From: a virus | IMG/VR virus record: IMGVR_UViG_3300024348_000004 | Length of the DNA: 64,000 bases | Reading direction: 5' to 3' (one strand) | In this document: in pieces, positions 2,751-10,495 of the stretch | How the letters are laid out: each line of letters starts with the position of its first letter | Numbering within the stretch: position 1 is the stretch's first letter | The notes under the pieces: model-generated | What the model was told of the DNA's origin: nothing | The model's database searches: none | Seen by the model: the letters and a program-made list of their open reading frames with translations, nothing else | Translations under genes and position numbers: made by a program

Positions 2751-4793
2751 ATGGCATCAGGTTCACAGAAGGTAAAAACACCGCAGGGCTGGAATTCTAC
2801 CCAAGGTGCTTGGGTTAAAACAGGTTCAACCACATGGAAAGCGGTAGACCAAATTTACGTTAAGACACCTACAGGGTGGAATAATGCATCGGGTCAACAG
2901 TCTGTACAACAACCTTACCCATACATTGCTAATAGTCAGACCCCATATATTGCGAATGCACAGCAACCGTATCCTTACATTGCTAATGCACAGACGCCTT
3001 ATATCGCTAACGCTCAGCAACCGTATCCGTACATTGCCAATAATCAGACGCCTTATATCGCTGCCGCTCAACAACCGTATCCTTATATAGCAAATAGTCA
3101 AACTCCATTTACGTACCAAAATAGACAACCATTTACGTATAGGAATCCTGTAAATGCACAGACACCATTTACGTATCAGAACAGGACACCATTTACATAT
3201 AGGAACCCAGTTAATGCTCAAACGCCTTATATCGCTAGCGCTCAGCAACCGTATCCGTACATTGCTAATAGTCAGACCCCATATATCGCTAATGCTCAAC
3301 AACCGTATCCTTATATAGCAAATAGTCAAACACCATATATTGCGAGTGCCCAGCAACCGTATCCATATATTGCTAATGCTCAAACGCCTTATATTGCTAA
3401 CGCTAGACAACCTGCTATTTATCAGAATCCATCAAGTTCACAGACACCTTACATTGCTCAGGCAAGACAACCTGCTGGATATAGAAATCCTGTTTCTGCA
3501 CAACAACCATATATCGCTAATGCTAGACAACCATTTACATACAGAAACCCTGTAAATGCTCAAACGCCTTATATTGCGAATGCTAGACAACCATTTACGT
3601 ATAGAAACCCAGTGAATGGTCAAAATCCGTACATTGCGAACGCACAACAACCATATCCGTATATTGCTAATAGTCAGACTCCATATATTGCGAATGCTCA
3701 ACAACCGTATCCATATATTGCGAATGCTCAAACGCCTTATATTGCTAACGCTAGACAACCAAACACATACGCCCGACAAGGTAGAACACCGTTCACGTAT
3801 CAGAACAGGTCTCCATTTACATACAGAAGCCCAGTTAACGGACAACAACCATTTACGTACCAAAACAGGTCTCCATTTACATATAGAAACCCTGTAGGAT
3901 ATCAAGTACCATTTACGTATCAAAATAGGTCACCGTTCACTTATAGAAACCCTGTAGGATATCGAGTACCATTTACGTATCAGAACAGACAACCTAGTAC
4001 GTATAGAAACCCAGTGAATGGACAACAACCATATATCGCTAACGCTAGACAACCTGCTGGTTACAGAAACCCAGTATCAGCACAGCAACCATATATTGCT
4101 AACGCTAGATACCCTGCTAACGCTCAGTCACCTAGTAATGCTCAATCGCCGTTTACTTACAATGCTAGATACCCTGCTAACGCTCAGAGTCCTAGTAATG
4201 GTCAAACACCGTTTACTTACAATGCTAGGTATCCTGCTAACGCTCAGAGTCCTAGTAATGGTCAAACACCGTTTACTTACAATGCTAGGTATCCAGCGAT
4301 TTACACTGCTAATGCTAGAGCATCTGTGAGTTCAAGAAGTCCTGGCACCTATCCATACAGGTCACCTGTTGGTTATTGGGAATCTAGTACTAACAGTGCT
4401 AGTAATTATCAGATGGGATATGTTGAGGGTGTAGGTTTATACTCTGCTTTTGGTGCCCCTTTGGGAAGTTATCAAACCGCTTTTGGTTCTTTACAGAACT
4501 TTAGTACTGTTACTGGTAACACCGGCTTGCCATTCTACGCTGTTACAGCATACCAAAGCAGTCAGTCTGCATCGACAAGTTTTTACATTGGTAGTAACAG
4601 TACCCTACCAATTGGCCCGCTGTCGCAAATTCTTGTTCAATGGACTAGAGGTTATTACCCATCACCTTTCTCAATACCATTCCAGTATATGCAGTTTTCA
4701 CAAGGTACGTGGTATATACAAGGTAGAAATATGATAAGAGAAAACAGTCCAGCTGGTGCTTATGGCGCCCTTAGAATAGATATAACAAAATAG
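2751..4793 (+). CDS. Repeat protein A (putative fibre/adhesin): Trp-rich N-terminus, 460-aa Pro-delimited array, 165-aa unique C-terminal domain
   Basis: ORF track; modules YIANA(Q/R)QP, YPYIANSQTP, FTYQNRxP, FTYRNPVNAQTP. Confidence 0.8.
   Translation: MASGSQKVKTPQGWNSTQGAWVKTGSTTWKAVDQIYVKTPTGWNNASGQQSVQQPYPYIANSQTPYIANAQQPYPYIANAQTPYIANAQQPYPYIANNQTPYIAAAQQPYPYIANSQTPFTYQNRQPFTYRNPVNAQTPFTYQNRTPFTYRNPVNAQTPYIASAQQPYPYIANSQTPYIANAQQPYPYIANSQTPYIASAQQPYPYIANAQTPYIANARQPAIYQNPSSSQTPYIAQARQPAGYRNPVSAQQPYIANARQPFTYRNPVNAQTPYIANARQPFTYRNPVNGQNPYIANAQQPYPYIANSQTPYIANAQQPYPYIANAQTPYIANARQPNTYARQGRTPFTYQNRSPFTYRSPVNGQQPFTYQNRSPFTYRNPVGYQVPFTYQNRSPFTYRNPVGYRVPFTYQNRQPSTYRNPVNGQQPYIANARQPAGYRNPVSAQQPYIANARYPANAQSPSNAQSPFTYNARYPANAQSPSNGQTPFTYNARYPANAQSPSNGQTPFTYNARYPAIYTANARASVSSRSPGTYPYRSPVGYWESSTNSASNYQMGYVEGVGLYSAFGAPLGSYQTAFGSLQNFSTVTGNTGLPFYAVTAYQSSQSASTSFYIGSNSTLPIGPLSQILVQWTRGYYPSPFSIPFQYMQFSQGTWYIQGRNMIRENSPAGAYGALRIDITK
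2916..4295 (+). repeat. Coding modular repeat array of protein A (24 x [10- or 12-aa module + 8-aa module])
   Basis: Manual parse of the translation, aa 56-515. Confidence 0.9.
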
Positions 4794-4804
4794 GAATTAG
4801 AAAT

Positions 4805-5065
4805 ATGGCATTATATGAAACAACAATAACAAACCTCGATGGAAGTACTGAAATTGCTTTAAATAAAGATTATATATTTTCTGATATTGACGGAGATGTA
4901 ACTTGTACACAAACAGGATTTAAAGCAGCATACACAGTAGGAGAAAATACGGACTTAGCACAAGCTGAGACAGATATCGATGCTTGTATTGCTAACAACT
5001 TGGAAGTTTGGGCTTGGCAGAAGTATTACCAAAACCCTCTGAACCCAAGTGAACTAAGGGATTAA
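4805..5065 (+). CDS. Small acidic hypothetical protein between the two repeat genes
   Basis: 86-aa ORF with upstream AGGA RBS. Confidence 0.7.
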   Translation: MALYETTITNLDGSTEIALNKDYIFSDIDGDVTCTQTGFKAAYTVGENTDLAQAETDIDACIANNLEVWAWQKYYQNPLNPSELRD

Positions 5066-5076
5066 TAGGAAAAGAC

Positions 5077-6588
5077 ATGGCACAAGGCAGTTATCAGGTT
5101 CCATCCATTGCACAACAACCGTTCACGTACAGCGCATCGTATCGTGTGCCTTATATTGCGAATGCTAGACAACCATTTACGTATAGAAACCCATTTACGT
5201 ATCGTGTGCCTTATATTGCTAACGCAAGACAACCATTTACGTATAGAAACCCATTCACATATAGGGTTCCATACATTGCGAATGCTAGACAACCTAGTAC
5301 GTATCGTAACCCATTCACATATAGGGTTCCGTTCACATACCAAAACAGGTCTCCATTTACATATAGAAACCCTGTAAGTTATCGTGTGCCATTTACTTAC
5401 AATAATAGACAACCATTTACATATAGAAACCCTGTAAATGCTCAAACGCCTTATATTGCCAATGCTAGACAACCTGCTGGTTACAGAAACCCTGTTTCAG
5501 GACAACAACCATATATTGCGAATGCTAGACAACCTGCTGGTTACAGAAACCCAGTATCAGCACAGCAACCATATATTGCTAACGCAAGGAATCCATTCAC
5601 ATATAGAAACCCTGTAAACGGTCAACAACCATATATTGCGAGTGCTCAGCAACCATATCCATATATTGCTAATAGTCAAACACCGTTCACTTATCAGAAC
5701 AGACAACCTAGTACATATGCTAGACAGGGTCAAACACCATTTACGTACCAAAATAGACAACCTGGCACATATGCTAGACAGGGTCAAACTCCATTTACGT
5801 ACCAAAATAGACAACCATTTACGTATAGAAACCCAGTGAATGGTCAAACGCCATTTACGTATCAGAACAGACAACCTAGTACGTATAGAAACCCAGTGAA
5901 TGGTCAAACTCCATTTACGTACCAAAACAGGTCTCCATTTACATATAGAAACCCTGTAGGTTATCAAGTACCATTTACATATAGTAATAGACAACCTGCT
6001 ATCTATGGAAACCCTGTAAGTTATCAAGTACCATTTACGTATCAGAACAGACAACCTAGTACATATCAGAGAACTGGTCAAACACCATTTACGTACCAAA
6101 ATAGACAACCTGGCACATATGCTAGACAGGGTCAAACACCATTTACGTATCAGAACAGACAACCTGGCACATATGCTAGACAGGGTCAAACACCGTTCAC
6201 GTATCAGAACAGACAACCTAGTACGTATAGAAACCCAGTGAATGGACAACAACCATATATCGCTAACGCTAGACAACCTAGTACGTATAGAAATCCAGTG
6301 AATGGTCAACAACCATATATTGCTAATGCAAGACAACCTGCCACCTATGCTAGACAGGGTAGAACACCGTTCACTTATCAGAACAGACAACCTGGCACAT
6401 ATGCACGACAAGGACAAACTCCTTTCACGTATCAACACAGACAACCTTCAACATATAGTAGACAAGGTAGAACACCGTTCACTTATCAGAACAGACAACC
6501 TTCGACATATGCTAGACAAGGTAGAACACCTGTTATACGTTGGGATGGTAACTTGTCACAACAGTGGCCTGCTGCTGATATAAGTTAA
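5077..6588 (+). CDS. Repeat protein B (mirror partner of protein A)
   Basis: 503 aa, almost entirely the same module vocabulary; AGGAAA RBS. Confidence 0.8.
   Translation: MAQGSYQVPSIAQQPFTYSASYRVPYIANARQPFTYRNPFTYRVPYIANARQPFTYRNPFTYRVPYIANARQPSTYRNPFTYRVPFTYQNRSPFTYRNPVSYRVPFTYNNRQPFTYRNPVNAQTPYIANARQPAGYRNPVSGQQPYIANARQPAGYRNPVSAQQPYIANARNPFTYRNPVNGQQPYIASAQQPYPYIANSQTPFTYQNRQPSTYARQGQTPFTYQNRQPGTYARQGQTPFTYQNRQPFTYRNPVNGQTPFTYQNRQPSTYRNPVNGQTPFTYQNRSPFTYRNPVGYQVPFTYSNRQPAIYGNPVSYQVPFTYQNRQPSTYQRTGQTPFTYQNRQPGTYARQGQTPFTYQNRQPGTYARQGQTPFTYQNRQPSTYRNPVNGQQPYIANARQPSTYRNPVNGQQPYIANARQPATYARQGRTPFTYQNRQPGTYARQGQTPFTYQHRQPSTYSRQGRTPFTYQNRQPSTYARQGRTPVIRWDGNLSQQWPAADIS
5152..6531 (+). repeat. 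Coding modular repeat array of protein B (24 x [8-aa module + 10- or 12-aa module])
   Basis: Manual parse, aa 26-485; 25+460+18 = 503 aa. Confidence 0.9.
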
Positions 6589-6636: not shown

Positions 6637-8232
6637 ATGGAAAAAATAACAACACTTGATGCACTACTTCTAAAATTAGAAGAAACCCCTATACCAACTG
6701 AAGAACTCAAAACTTATGGTCATGCTCAGAGGCATCAATTACCCCAATATCATTTAGGGTCTACTAATATTGATGAGATTGATAAAGACAGCGAGTTCTA
6801 TAAAGTCTTATCATATTTTTTTGATAATGTTATGCCTCCCCTACGACTTCTTAAGTGGTCAGACCTTGATACACTGAGAAGACAGAAAGAGATTACGACC
6901 TTTAATGGATTACAATTTCAGTGTAATGCATATCACAAATTCATGCCAGATATTTACACTTCAGGAATCCAACCCGAAGGTGAAAAAAACATAACAACAA
7001 AATTCCAAGTTGCTACTGTTGATGATGAAATAAAAGAAATTAAAGACTACTGTGGTGAAGCAACCGACCCACGTGACTTTCATCAAGAAGATTTTAACAT
7101 ATCTATGAATTCAATGTATTATCATAGTGCGAAAGCTCATTGGATTACACAAAGTATTAGAGAGGAGGGATTGTGGGCTCCTATTCAAGGATATACTCAA
7201 TCTCCTAACGGTGGTAATTTCACACAACTTATGATACATCCAGGCAGTGTACGTTCAGGTGTATTTGAAGAGATGGAAGACCCAACACATGAACTTTTGA
7301 TATGGGATTTCCAAGATACATTCCCCGACATTCCATCAATGTCCATAGACGATTCTTTGGATTACTGGAAAGAAACCATCCTCAATGGTAATACAAAATG
7401 CAATCATAAAAACTTGAGTGTTATATTTACTAATGGTACACTTGAATACCAATCCGACCATTCCAATATAGAATTTAGAAGAGAAGTTTGGAAACATAGT
7501 AAGAAGTTTACAGAACTTTCTGCTGGAAAACCTCTAACAATTTATATTGGTTATGACCCTAGACACAATAATCTAGAGTTGTACTCCAAGCAATCTATAT
7601 TAGATGCAGTGAAGAGAAGTGTTGGTGGTGGGAGATTTGTTGATTACACTAGGTTTACGCCAGAAATTAAAATACTTGACATTTCAAAGATACCCGAGTA
7701 CACTAGAGAGTATGCAAATCAATCTACTGAGTTTACATACAGTAGATTCTTAATACCGTATCTTGAGAACTATGAAGGGTTTAGTATGTTTGTAGATGAT
7801 GACTTCATCTTTAATAAAAACCCTATGCCGATGTTCTATTACCTAGGTCAAGATGATGCAGTAGCATGTATCAAGTATCCGCAAATTAAACATGATGAAA
7901 CCAAGTTTGATGGAGAAGTTAATATAGATTATCCATGTAAACTATGGTCATCTATGATGTTCTTCAATAACAGTCATCCCGACTGTAAGAAGTTAACACC
8001 CGAAGTGGTTAACACTTGGACAGGTGCCCAATTGCATCAATTCGAATGGACTGATAAGATTGCTCCCATCCCCGAGAAGTATGTGTTCGTTGAGGGATAT
8101 GATGACCCCGAGGTTAAGTGGGATTTCTCTGCTGTTCACTATACAAGAGGTGGGCCATGGATAAATGGGATGGATACAGAACACATAAATAATTTAGAAC
8201 ACTACAACAAAGTTAAAAACAGCTTGTTGTGA
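6637..8232 (+). CDS. GT-A fold glycosyltransferase fused to an N-terminal, possibly ParB/Srx-like, domain
   Basis: C-terminal YIGYDPR, STEFTYSRFLIPYL, DDDF, WSSMM, HYTRGGPW; N-terminal SIREEGLWAPI...HPGSVR. Confidence 0.7.
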   Translation: MEKITTLDALLLKLEETPIPTEELKTYGHAQRHQLPQYHLGSTNIDEIDKDSEFYKVLSYFFDNVMPPLRLLKWSDLDTLRRQKEITTFNGLQFQCNAYHKFMPDIYTSGIQPEGEKNITTKFQVATVDDEIKEIKDYCGEATDPRDFHQEDFNISMNSMYYHSAKAHWITQSIREEGLWAPIQGYTQSPNGGNFTQLMIHPGSVRSGVFEEMEDPTHELLIWDFQDTFPDIPSMSIDDSLDYWKETILNGNTKCNHKNLSVIFTNGTLEYQSDHSNIEFRREVWKHSKKFTELSAGKPLTIYIGYDPRHNNLELYSKQSILDAVKRSVGGGRFVDYTRFTPEIKILDISKIPEYTREYANQSTEFTYSRFLIPYLENYEGFSMFVDDDFIFNKNPMPMFYYLGQDDAVACIKYPQIKHDETKFDGEVNIDYPCKLWSSMMFFNNSHPDCKKLTPEVVNTWTGAQLHQFEWTDKIAPIPEKYVFVEGYDDPEVKWDFSAVHYTRGGPWINGMDTEHINNLEHYNKVKNSLL

Positions 8233-8270
8233 TAACAATCTTATGATATAATGGAGAAAAAGGATATATT

Positions 8271-8861
8271 ATGAATGCACTAATTTACACAGAAAACAAT
8301 GAACTTATGATTACCAAACCTAATGGTTTGCATTATAAGTTTGAAAATGTCGACAAACCCGAATTGGGATTTGATTATGATGTTCTAGTCTACGCTGAAG
8401 AAGAACTTAAGATTCTCAACTGGGATGTTCAAAAAGAGTTCCAAGACCAAGAACAAATTCCCTTAAATGCAGATGAAAAAGACGCTGTCGAAACTTACAT
8501 TAAAAATTCAGAACCACCTATGGGTGTCACTTTAAACAGTCAATACATTGAACAACTAGCTTATATGTGTAATAAGAATGTTGAAGCATGTGCTAACGGA
8601 TTTAATTTTTCTGATTTGGCAGAGGTTGTCTATGTTGGTAGAGAAGGTTCCAACCATCCTTACAGGTCTAATGCTAGACGTGTTATGGAGTATGCTGATG
8701 CATTATGGCACATCTTTGACCAAGTTATGAATGAGATTGTAAAAACTAGAGAAGATACTCTTAGAGATTTTGCTAGTTATGTGGAACAACTACCACAACC
8801 ACAACAAATTCCCGAAACAGAAAATTTCGCACATAATCGGGATACAAAAGTTGGCGGTTAA
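8271..8861 (+). CDS. Hypothetical protein
   Basis: 196-aa ORF, AAGGA RBS, upstream TATAAT. Confidence 0.7.
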   Translation: MNALIYTENNELMITKPNGLHYKFENVDKPELGFDYDVLVYAEEELKILNWDVQKEFQDQEQIPLNADEKDAVETYIKNSEPPMGVTLNSQYIEQLAYMCNKNVEACANGFNFSDLAEVVYVGREGSNHPYRSNARRVMEYADALWHIFDQVMNEIVKTREDTLRDFASYVEQLPQPQQIPETENFAHNRDTKVGG

Positions 8862-9630
8862 TCTAAATCCAAAGGTTGTTCATATTGATAAACCTTTTAA
8901 AATTCAAGACCTACCTTTACAAGATATCTATGTATTGGATGATTGGCTCAGTGTTGATTTATTTCATCACTATGCAAATGTCCATCTAAGAACTTATAGT
9001 GAATGGTCTAAAACAAATGAAGTTCAGAGCGGTAGCGCTACTGGATTTCCCCATCATAGTTTTTGGGGTGCAACTTACTTTAGAGGAGCATTTCAAGAGG
9101 ATGGTTCACTAGGTAAAGGTGATTTGGTTCTTGAGAGGGGGTCAGACCCATTGAATGCCGTGTTTGCTAGATATATAGATAGCAGACTAAGAACTGAATT
9201 TGGATTTAAATGGGAGAAATTTCAATACATGGGATTGAACTCTCAAACACAGGGACTAGATGGGACAACACATTCTGATTGTGCTCAAGATGAAGATTGG
9301 AATATATCGTTTCTATATTATTGCAGTCCTGTATGGTATCCATCATGGGGTGGAGATTTAAGAATTTATGATACTATGCAATTTGGACTTGATGGGAGAG
9401 CAGACCACGTCAAGAATCACCAAGTTGCTTCTGTAGAATATAAACCAAACAGATTGCTGATGTTTGACGGAAGAATTCCACATGGTGCAGATGCACCTAC
9501 AACAAAAGCACGATACATGGACAGACGTTCTATAGTATTAAGAGGTGATGAAGTATCACTTACACATGAAGGAGAAGAATATCATGCCAATGATAGAATT
9601 TCACAGTTACAGCTCAGAGACCCTCGCTGA
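8851..9630 (+). CDS. 2OG-Fe(II) oxygenase (prolyl-hydroxylase-like)
   Basis: HSD...WGGDL...PNRLLMFDGRIPH...R; start uncertain (TTG 8851 or 8770). Confidence 0.75.
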   Translation: MAVNLNPKVVHIDKPFKIQDLPLQDIYVLDDWLSVDLFHHYANVHLRTYSEWSKTNEVQSGSATGFPHHSFWGATYFRGAFQEDGSLGKGDLVLERGSDPLNAVFARYIDSRLRTEFGFKWEKFQYMGLNSQTQGLDGTTHSDCAQDEDWNISFLYYCSPVWYPSWGGDLRIYDTMQFGLDGRADHVKNHQVASVEYKPNRLLMFDGRIPHGADAPTTKARYMDRRSIVLRGDEVSLTHEGEEYHANDRISQLQLRDPR

Positions 9631-10495
9631 TTTTAAACCAGTATTAGCAAAGAGTATTTTACCCGAGTGGTGGAAGAAAACTAAGGTAGCGGAGTTTACT
9701 CAAGGTAGACAACAACAAACTATTCGTGCTTGTCCAGCAATGGATGATTGGTTAAAGAGCGGATGGATTATTGTTGCTAATAGAGACATTCATGTTATAA
9801 ATGGTGAAGGAATCAATGATAGTGGCACCAATAAAGTATTTACTTGGGATGGTAAGGATGCTTCAACCCATTCACAGTCCCATCCTAAAGAACAAGTTAG
9901 AGAATCTTTTGAATACTATGGTAGTGGTGACGGTAAAGCTCCTATAAAAGATGCATTTAAATTCAGAAATCCGTGGAACATAAAAACCCCGCCTGGCTAT
10001 TCATGTTTCTACTTAGACCCATTCTTATTTCAGAATAAATACTTTGCATGTTGGCAGGGTATTATTGATACTGATACATTTAATGTTGGTCTAGACAATG
10101 CACAGATAATTTTTTATCCTAAAGTCGACCATTCATTTGTTATACCAAAAGGAACCCCTCTTTGTCAGATTATACCGTTTAAGAGAGAAGAGTGGCATGC
10201 TTCATTTGAAATAAAATCACATGAACACTGGCAAGAAACTAAAGGAAGAGGGTATAAAATAGACCCACATGACCCTTCTACTGAGAAGGTTTTATCAATG
10301 CAAGAATGGGGTCATAAAGCGCCATTTGAAGGGAAGGATGGTATTAGAGATTTGGGCCCGTATAGAAATAAGGGTTATTGGGTACCTAAAGCTAGACTAT
10401 TTAAAAATGATAATCCCCCACCCGAATGCCCTATGCACGTAAGTGAAGAACAAGAACCTACTGAGGTTCAACTGGAGTTAGACTTTAATGATTAG
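9584..10495 (+). CDS. Conserved phage hypothetical protein (CPA...GW / FxNPWxIKTPPGYS family, often next to 2OG oxygenases)
   Basis: IRACPAMDD, KFRNPWNIKTPPGYSC, IPKGTPLCQIIPFKRE; GGAG RBS before ATG 9584. Confidence 0.65.
   Translation: MPMIEFHSYSSETLADFKPVLAKSILPEWWKKTKVAEFTQGRQQQTIRACPAMDDWLKSGWIIVANRDIHVINGEGINDSGTNKVFTWDGKDASTHSQSHPKEQVRESFEYYGSGDGKAPIKDAFKFRNPWNIKTPPGYSCFYLDPFLFQNKYFACWQGIIDTDTFNVGLDNAQIIFYPKVDHSFVIPKGTPLCQIIPFKREEWHASFEIKSHEHWQETKGRGYKIDPHDPSTEKVLSMQEWGHKAPFEGKDGIRDLGPYRNKGYWVPKARLFKNDNPPPECPMHVSEEQEPTEVQLELDFND

Follow-up and report, generated by a model that had tools for sequence, protein, structure and literature searches.

Adjacent repeat proteins of an uncultured marine T4-like phage are mirror complements in module order, suggesting an antiparallel pairing code

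We analyzed a 64,000-nucleotide (nt) stretch of DNA from an uncultured marine T4-like myovirus (IMG/VR record IMGVR_UViG_3300024348_000004; this whole stretch is referred to as the window), focusing on two adjacent genes, A and B, whose products are built largely from short, proline-terminated modules arranged in mirror-complementary order (Table 1). A preliminary description of the locus, made from its letters alone, had proposed that the two proteins zip together into a long antiparallel fibre whose register is set by complementary modules. On codon comparison, A and B are real genes under purifying selection in the annotated frame: in the gapless regions of the alignment to the homologous locus L012, synonymous differences outnumber non-synonymous ones in both A (92 to 28) and B (46 to 30). 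Long antisense open reading frames (ORFs) of up to 295 amino acids (aa) also lie over both arrays on the minus strand (2826-3923 and 5062-6444); these are non-genes that arise because the repeat reading frames are stop-poor.

Table 1. Genes and protein segments at the A/B locus, with positions in the window.
Feature	Position (nt)	Strand	Basis or remark
Upstream fibre-like structural protein, 852 aa	155..2713	+	phrog_697 structural protein, E 3.9e-39
Gene A, "forward strand" of the pair, 680 aa	2751..4793	+	ORF
A residues 1-55, N-terminal domain (conserved; three V-K-T..G-W motifs)	2751..2915	+	Homologue alignment
A array, residues 56-515, long modules of 10 or 12 aa and 8-mers by turns, 24 of each	2916..4295	+	Script parse
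A residues 516-539 (16-, 4- and 4-aa modules), pairing onward against B 2-25	4296..4367	+	Parse
A residues 540-680, non-repeat C-terminal domain	4368..4790	+	Varies between lineages
86-aa ORF between A and B	4805..5065	+	Accessory; in the 6 closest loci only
Gene B, "complementary strand", 503 aa, essentially all array	5077..6588	+	ORF
B array, residues 26-485, mirror complement of the A array	5152..6531	+	Script parse
B residues 486-503, conserved C-terminal tail VIRWDG..W..	6532..6585	+	Homologue alignment
531-aa gene immediately after B	6637..8232	+	phrog_28018, E 3.7e-39

Scripted parsing of the two proteins reproduced the arrangement set out in the preliminary description. Both arrays comprise 460 aa of 8-mers alternating with 10- or 12-mers, and the long-module pattern of A (10x4, 12x2, 10x3, 12x4, 10x3, 12x8) is found in B only when B is reversed. 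In this register, every YIA-type 8-mer faces an FTY-type 8-mer (24/24), with the order in A reading YYYFFYYYYYYYYYYFFFFYYFFF and reversed B being its exact inverse, and the YPYIAN 10-mers stand opposite xTYxRxGxTP 10-mers in 10 of 10 cases, including long module 16, where the two proteins swap roles. The 12-mers are also paired by type, namely VN-type with VN-type (6/6), AIY with AIY (1/1), AGYRNPVS-type with FTYRNPV[GS]Y-type (4/4) and ANAQSPSN-type with xTYRNPFTYRVP (3/3), using classes that were set after seeing the window pair and whose underlying 6-mer rule holds in other loci. Taken together, all 48 modules of A read from N to C terminus are complementary to the 48 modules of B read from C to N terminus, and the module-type counts of the two proteins are exact, Chargaff-like complements. 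The pairing extends past the 460-aa array, as A residues 516-539 (16+4+4) lie opposite B residues 2-25 (8, 6, 10); over its full length, the paired span sets B residues 2-485 against A residues 56-539.

The mirror match is far beyond chance. Shuffling the modules while keeping the 8-mer and long slots gave a mean of 18.4 matches (standard deviation 3.0) and a maximum of 33 in 100,000 permutations, as compared with the 48 observed, and when the proline-terminated tokens of B were shuffled, none of 20,000 permutations reached the 63 observed coincident boundaries (best 32). The combinatorial odds are 1 in 1,961,256 for the length pattern alone and 1 in 1,307,504 for the Y/F pattern. In whole-protein numbering, 64 of the 67 B prolines match an A proline at i+j=540. 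Homo-pairing of either protein (46 coincident prolines for A:A, 40 for B:B), a parallel arrangement (43) and the next register of A:B (46) are all far worse at the sequence level (at most 46 versus 64). The statement in the preliminary description that this is not a DNA inverted repeat also stood: both genes lie on the plus strand, the identity between the A array and the reverse complement of the B array is 24.1% versus a null of 24.4 ± 1.0%, and inverted repeats are limited to a single 19-nt chance case.

To extend the comparison beyond a single locus, we searched IMG/VR with A, which yielded 277 relatives, from which 79 loci were fetched and 47 unique pairs analyzed. Nearly every complete locus encodes an A-like gene with the conserved 55-aa N-terminus, followed by a B-like gene with a ..RWD..W.. 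tail, and the 47 pairs fall into 35 distinct architectures with arrays of 211-544 aa. In a gapless antiparallel alignment anchored where the A array starts and the B array ends, and thus with zero free parameters, the fraction of B proline boundaries coinciding with those of A had a median of 0.96 in cognate pairs, versus 0.00 in the parallel arrangement and 0.39 in non-cognate pairs; 24 of the 35 architectures have at least 90% boundary coincidence. Across all pairs, the facing 8-mers are YIA/FTY (525) or NIR/FTY (198), with one instance each of YIA/YIA and FTY/FTY, and 287 facing 10-mers are complementary. Of 1559 facing 6-mer or 8-mer pairs, 1465 have an aromatic residue at position 3 of one chain only, the other chain carrying Ala or Arg, and 79 facing pairs in which both are aromatic are special Gly-Tyr with Gly-Tyr pairs. 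Further module pairs in other lineages conform to this logic, NNARQP with FTFQNP being one example.

The homologous pairs also carry the mirrored insertions and deletions (indels) that the proposed pairing had predicted. The architecture of A departs from that of the window exactly when that of B does in 45 of 46 loci, and two independent insertions of 20-aa units in A of locus L001 are matched at the mirrored places in its B. A compensatory swap is seen in L009, where positions that are F in A and Y in B of the window are Y and F, respectively. By sequence comparison, the mirror rule is thus shown to be conserved, with compensatory changes, over 35 architectures.

A second, paralogous pair, A′ (536 aa) and B′ (372 aa), lies on the minus strand of a related contig, approximately 7 kb upstream of the main pair (L085; G002:C1:39800-44800), in a region equivalent to DNA upstream of the window start. 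Its modules are more irregular in length and show the same YIA/FTY, 10-mer and 6-mer complements, with 19 coincident prolines at a sum of 341 (shuffle mean 10.5, maximum 17 in 2000) and proline parities of 31/31 and 36/37. A′ and B′ follow a fibre gene of their own, ending in ..GHLWFVI, and the V-K/N..G motifs, all three of which are on A in the main pair, are split with one on A′ and two on B′.

Next, we examined the residue-level organization of the arrays. In the window, all prolines (71 in A, 63 in B) occupy even positions and every Tyr or Phe an odd one; family-wide, the even:odd ratio of prolines is 2482:15 for A homologues and 2195:17 for B homologues. Even positions hold Pro, Arg, Gln, Asn, Thr and Ile, and odd positions Tyr, Phe, Ala, Gly and Val, while Asp, Glu, Lys, Cys, Met, Trp and Leu are absent from the arrays. 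A two-residue period that runs unbroken for 460 residues is the signature of an extended beta-strand. Blocks of A and B remain equal in length despite differing internal prolines (2+8 versus 10, 16 versus 6+10, 10+4 versus 8+6), as they do in A′/B′ (38/38 and 54/54), and such residue-exact agreement argues for a continuous register.

Among distinct facing modules, the excess of mutual information falls almost exclusively on odd-odd positions along the anti-diagonal, at i+j = L or L-2. Clear substitution pairs include Arg3 of the small type with His5 of the big type (70), as opposed to Ala3 with Asn5 (59) or Ala5 (46), then Tyr3 of YPY with Gly7 of xTYxRxG in the 10-mers (95/103), and in the 6-mers Ala3 with Tyr3 or Phe3 (81), Tyr3 facing Tyr3 only if Gly flanks it. 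Because the covariation is odd-odd, the register would be shifted by an odd number of residues from coincident module boundaries, which suggests that the physical register is offset by one or three residues from module-faces-module and that residues of like parity are opposed.

Outside the arrays, the ends of the two proteins differ in their conservation. The N-terminal domain of A has a mean column identity of 81% over 25 divergent homologues, and a profile search of 1.84 billion representatives returned approximately 23 proteins, all of this family and all matching at the N-terminus. In the B tail, R161, W162, D163, W170 and P171 (aligned-segment numbering) are invariant in 26 homologues. 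The C-terminus of A varies by lineage, being a globular domain as in the window, another globular domain, a Hint domain, or nothing; the window type is kept in the closest loci only, and its AlphaFold2 (AF2) model had a predicted local distance difference test (pLDDT) score of 40, unusable for a fold search. Neither the N-terminus nor the C-terminus of A has a relative in the cultured-phage collection, where a near-identity search gave a 42-nt match only, and the C-terminal domain has no homologue at near length in a 5.8-billion protein set. The A homologues of L067 (4070-4600), L070 and L071 have, after a poly-Gly linker, a Hint/intein-like domain (PF14890, E 2.8e-9) that begins with GGGGGC and ends with ..VHNGGG, and A of L060 ends in poly-Gly only. 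Situated at the end of A that would adjoin the N-terminus of B, a predicted autoprocessing Hint domain could cleave or ligate the A C-terminus.

The gene neighbourhood places A and B in a tail-fibre cluster, just 5′ of homologues of gp13, gp14, gp15, gp17, gp18, gp20 and gp23. In T4 order, A and B are followed on their 3′ side by gp13/gp14-like head-tail adaptor and head closure proteins, the tail sheath stabiliser and the large terminase, and further downstream by the tail sheath, portal, scaffold, major head protein and DNA polymerase. The neck protein of the window has at most 50% identity to that of any cultured phage, the nearest being Pelagibacter phage Mosig, cyanophage P-TIM40, Methylophilales phage Melnitz and HTVC008M. 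Gene order is kept across loci as fibre, A, B and the 531-aa gene, with tail-fibre and tail-fibre-assembly genes farther upstream of A/B in a related contig.

Directly 5′ of A, a homologue of the phrog_697-type fibre gene is present in 77 of 79 loci. The final 12 residues of its product in the window (DGAVGDMWILYS, nt 2675-2710) vary hardly at all between homologous loci, and the C-terminal tail DGAVGD[LM]W.. is kept in 32 of 32 distinct loci, at total protein lengths of 475-963 aa. In these 32 loci, longer upstream fibre proteins go with longer B arrays (205-541 aa; Pearson r=0.81, uncorrected for phylogeny). The 86-aa ORF between A and B gave no match in PHROG and Pfam scans; in most other loci A and B are spaced by 3-40 nt or overlap, and some have a different gap of approximately 300 nt. 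On the 3′ side of B, the 531-aa gene follows directly in 75 of 79 loci and, like it, a 196-aa gene is found after B in approximately 75 of 79, followed by a 2OG-Fe(II) oxygenase (PF13640, E 2.2e-8; region 6637-10495). It has been suggested that these enzymes modify the fibre. Searches with the 531-aa protein gave no Pfam family at E ≤ 0.01 and no relative among PDB sequences at E ≤ 0.1, and neither search bore out a suggested glycosyltransferase fusion.

Together, the mirrored homologues and the shuffled controls support the antiparallel A:B pairing with a register set by complementary modules that had been predicted, and in our judgment A and B probably form an obligate 1:1 antiparallel heteromer, which we read as a continuous, residue-registered beta-ribbon. 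Residues 2-485 of B would run alongside residues 56-539 of A in the opposite direction. With residues of like parity opposed, the aromatic and small residues of both chains would lie on one face of the ribbon and Pro, Arg and the other polar residues on the other, and every proline of both chains could occupy a non-hydrogen-bonded site. By textbook beta-sheet geometry, a proline at such a site of a two-stranded antiparallel ribbon sacrifices no bond between the strands and prevents aggregation at the edges. The irregular succession of module types and lengths would serve as an address permitting one partner and one register, and the large-versus-small rule would hold the packing volume constant. 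A packing volume kept constant on the aromatic face suggests that this side is buried, as it would be in a needle of three A:B ribbons, making a 3+3 needle of six strands a possible alternative to the two-chain ribbon. Fully extended, the 460-residue array would span roughly 150 nm by the estimate in the preliminary description. If straight, the paired part would be approximately 160 nm long and strongly cationic, given 81 Arg in the arrays (29 in A, 52 in B) and zero acidic residues.

The conserved N-terminal domain of A would act as a proximal attachment plug that meets the conserved B tail at one end of the ribbon, and this end may attach to the upstream fibre protein at its invariant C-terminal tip. 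The pair would then be a distal extension on the fibre tip, because the upstream gene is always a fibre gene with a near-invariant stretch of 12 last residues, and the variable C-terminal domain of A, at the far end, would be the host-recognition tip. Conserved proximal and variable distal parts are the pattern of phage receptor-binding fibres, and A/B displays it. We infer that A/B is a distal subunit, or adhesin, of the phage tail fibre.

With less assurance, and only somewhat in favour, we further propose that the modules constitute a natural, information-bearing pairing code between two polypeptides, in which module order sets a unique partner and register, much as in a nucleic-acid duplex. 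Its alphabet would consist of proline-terminated modules in which YIA or NIR 8-mers pair with FTY 8-mers, YPYIAN with xTYxRxG 10-mers, and, among the 6-mers, xNAQxP with FTYRxP and GY with GY. Compensatory indels and swaps would uphold the code, which appears to be used twice per genome, in paralogous pairs.

Several observations weigh against the ribbon interpretation. The covariation and the aromatic-to-small counts fit i+j=L and i+j=L-2 alike. Four of the 47 unique pairs (L063, L029, L042 and L030) contain an unmatched block of 18, 44 or 88 aa; each has a sister contig with a matched pair (L031, L041 or L055), and the blocks may be short-read mis-assemblies of the repeats, by collapse or expansion, or real slippage variants that have not yet been compensated. 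Binding of A to B is predicted from sequence comparison, and the fibre or adhesin role from gene context only. A free two-stranded ribbon of approximately 160 nm with an exposed aromatic face would be unprecedented and floppy, so that a higher-order assembly is probably needed. Finally, the correlation between fibre and array length could place the pair along the upstream fibre and not beyond it; the correlation may be a lineage trait or may reflect a need for commensurate structures.

We consider it unlikely that the two proteins instead form a cross-beta sandwich, in which each chain alone would fold into a beta-meander sheet with one short strand per module and prolines in the turns, the A and B sheets stacking face to face with reversed chain order, the large/small rule serving as a steric zipper, and the rod measuring approximately 35 nm. 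Such a sheet-to-sheet interface would also fit the odd-odd covariation and the aromatic-to-small complementarity, and the upstream fibre, whose length tracks that of the array, would be more commensurate with a rod this short. The low-confidence AF2 model of B alone is also a meander, with 5-residue strands at the module period; however, the model (B residues 328-503, 26 homologues) has a pLDDT of 38.7, without a confident fold, and is therefore no evidence of one. In a sandwich, the strands opposite each other could differ in length, and a hairpin could not sit opposite a single strand; the blocks nevertheless agree residue for residue even where their internal prolines differ. Moreover, the phase coherence of approximately 4,700 prolines is obligatory for a continuous strand and would go unexplained for some 70 separate turns, and the module boundaries, with an aromatic after Pro and with Gly or Asn inside the modules, are poor turn formers. 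It is on the residue-exact block lengths and the global phase coherence that we favour the continuous ribbon over the sandwich.

The length correlation and the kept synteny could also be accommodated if A and B, without touching each other, followed a third component with polarity, for instance the shaft of the upstream protein, in opposite directions, the mirror then reflecting a shared template. We regard this as highly improbable, since a template predicts similar modules at facing positions, whereas strict complementarity and residue covariation between A and B are observed; in addition, the upstream protein is most conserved in its last 12 residues only, which fits end-on docking, and the correlation is uncorrected for phylogeny. 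An origin of the mirror at the DNA level (inverted duplication, gene conversion or assembly artefact), or by low-complexity chance, with no meaning for the proteins, carries a negligible probability in our estimation. In its favour one could cite the similar short cassettes of which the two genes consist, the tendency of repeats to mis-assemble and the four unmatched pairs, but the reverse-complement identity of the arrays does not exceed its null (0.241 versus 0.244), inverted repeats are lacking, and in no frame does the YIANARQP/FTYQNRQP mapping amount to a codon complement. A mirror would be destroyed, not created, by an assembly error, and the rule recurs in independent assemblies. We therefore rejected a DNA-level or chance origin on the basis of the reverse-complement null, the shuffles, which never reach the match, and the 35 architectures.

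If the pairing code proposed here is correct, it would represent a new principle of protein assembly and a ready-made, length-programmable heterodimeric beta-fibre scaffold. Complementary module types occur in equal, Chargaff-like counts in the two genes, and dozens of natural "compensatory mutations" are seen. If the chains pair as proposed, they would provide testable rules for register-specific beta-ribbon heterodimers of arbitrary length, which are of interest to protein design, and would exemplify the co-evolution of two slippage-prone repeat arrays. It would also imply an unrecognised type of fibre, approximately 70-180 nm if extended, on abundant uncultured marine T4-like phages, with a fibre length and a distal domain that differ by lineage and probably bear on host recognition.

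The preliminary description knew of no described family with this design, and our searches of Pfam, PHROGs, PDB sequences, the cultured-phage collection and the full-text literature agree, returning no match that describes these proteins. Comparison of A and B with all PDB chain sequences by phmmer gave chance hits only (E ≥ 0.18), none of the PHROG tail-fibre families matched either protein, look-alikes of B in the ESM Atlas were limited to sub-threshold hits, and literature searches by motif and by concept found no publication describing a mirror-coded pair. No recognised folded domain was found in the A or B array with Pfam and PHROGs, both arrays being linear repeats of the same grammar. 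Matches of B in Pseudomonas phages by tblastn were rejected as unrelated SAASNTG repeats in another reading frame. The Pfam family PF10511, Cementoin, scored 31.2 bits against A only (cut-off 27), with no single significant stretch; this trappin transglutaminase-substrate family resembles A in its short, Pro/Gln-rich, hexapeptide-like repeats and differs in its eukaryotic origin, and we rejected the match as compositional. Its Gln-Lys cross-linking logic is inapplicable because the arrays lack Lys.

Other fibre types were also set aside. A collagen-like or polyproline-II fibre was rejected on the strict two-residue period and the absence of a Gly at every third position, and a beta-solenoid or curli-like fold, in which one chain alone forms rungs of constant length, on the module lengths of 6, 8, 10 and 12 in irregular order, with the pLDDT of 38.7 for B alone as weak evidence. 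In podophage A1002, the "two-protein chain-like fibre" (PMC13730344) consists of a rope protein onto which fibre dimers are docked, and it is not a mirror-coded pair.

The nearest structural analogue is the tip of T4 gp37, a six-stranded antiparallel needle (PMC7291167). Like the proposed ribbon, it has long beta-strands that run down and back along the fibre axis in antiparallel fashion at the distal end of a T4-type tail fibre, and a trimer of A:B ribbons would likewise total six strands. In the gp37 needle, which is a trimer of approximately 15 nm with His-x-His metal sites, both strands of a pair come from one chain as a hairpin. The A/B strands, in contrast, are separate gene products with up to 540 paired residues and a module-level code, and the window arrays have no His-x-His metal repeats, with 0 His in A and 1 in B.

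A second point of comparison is the tandem beta-zipper, in which bacterial fibronectin-binding repeats add strands antiparallel to the F1 modules of fibronectin. Here, too, ordered short motifs bind antiparallel to ordered partner units, with the motif order reversed. The one partner, however, consists of folded domains of another organism, to each of which the motifs add a strand, whereas in A/B both partners are proline-punctuated linear repeats encoded by adjacent genes, residue-matched and related by a two-way large/small code.

Keratin type I/II and Fos-Jun coiled coils, as well as antiparallel alpha/beta spectrin, are assemblies of two chains that derive their register from periodic complementary positions. 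They share with A/B the use of two different chains for one fibre, with a fixed partner and register, and differ from it in being alpha-helical and in their heptad or 106-residue domain repeats; we know of none with a mirrored-complement module order and compensating indels in a gene pair. Where known fibrous heteromers set partner and register by helical heptads or folded domains, A and B would represent a beta-strand equivalent with an explicit module alphabet.

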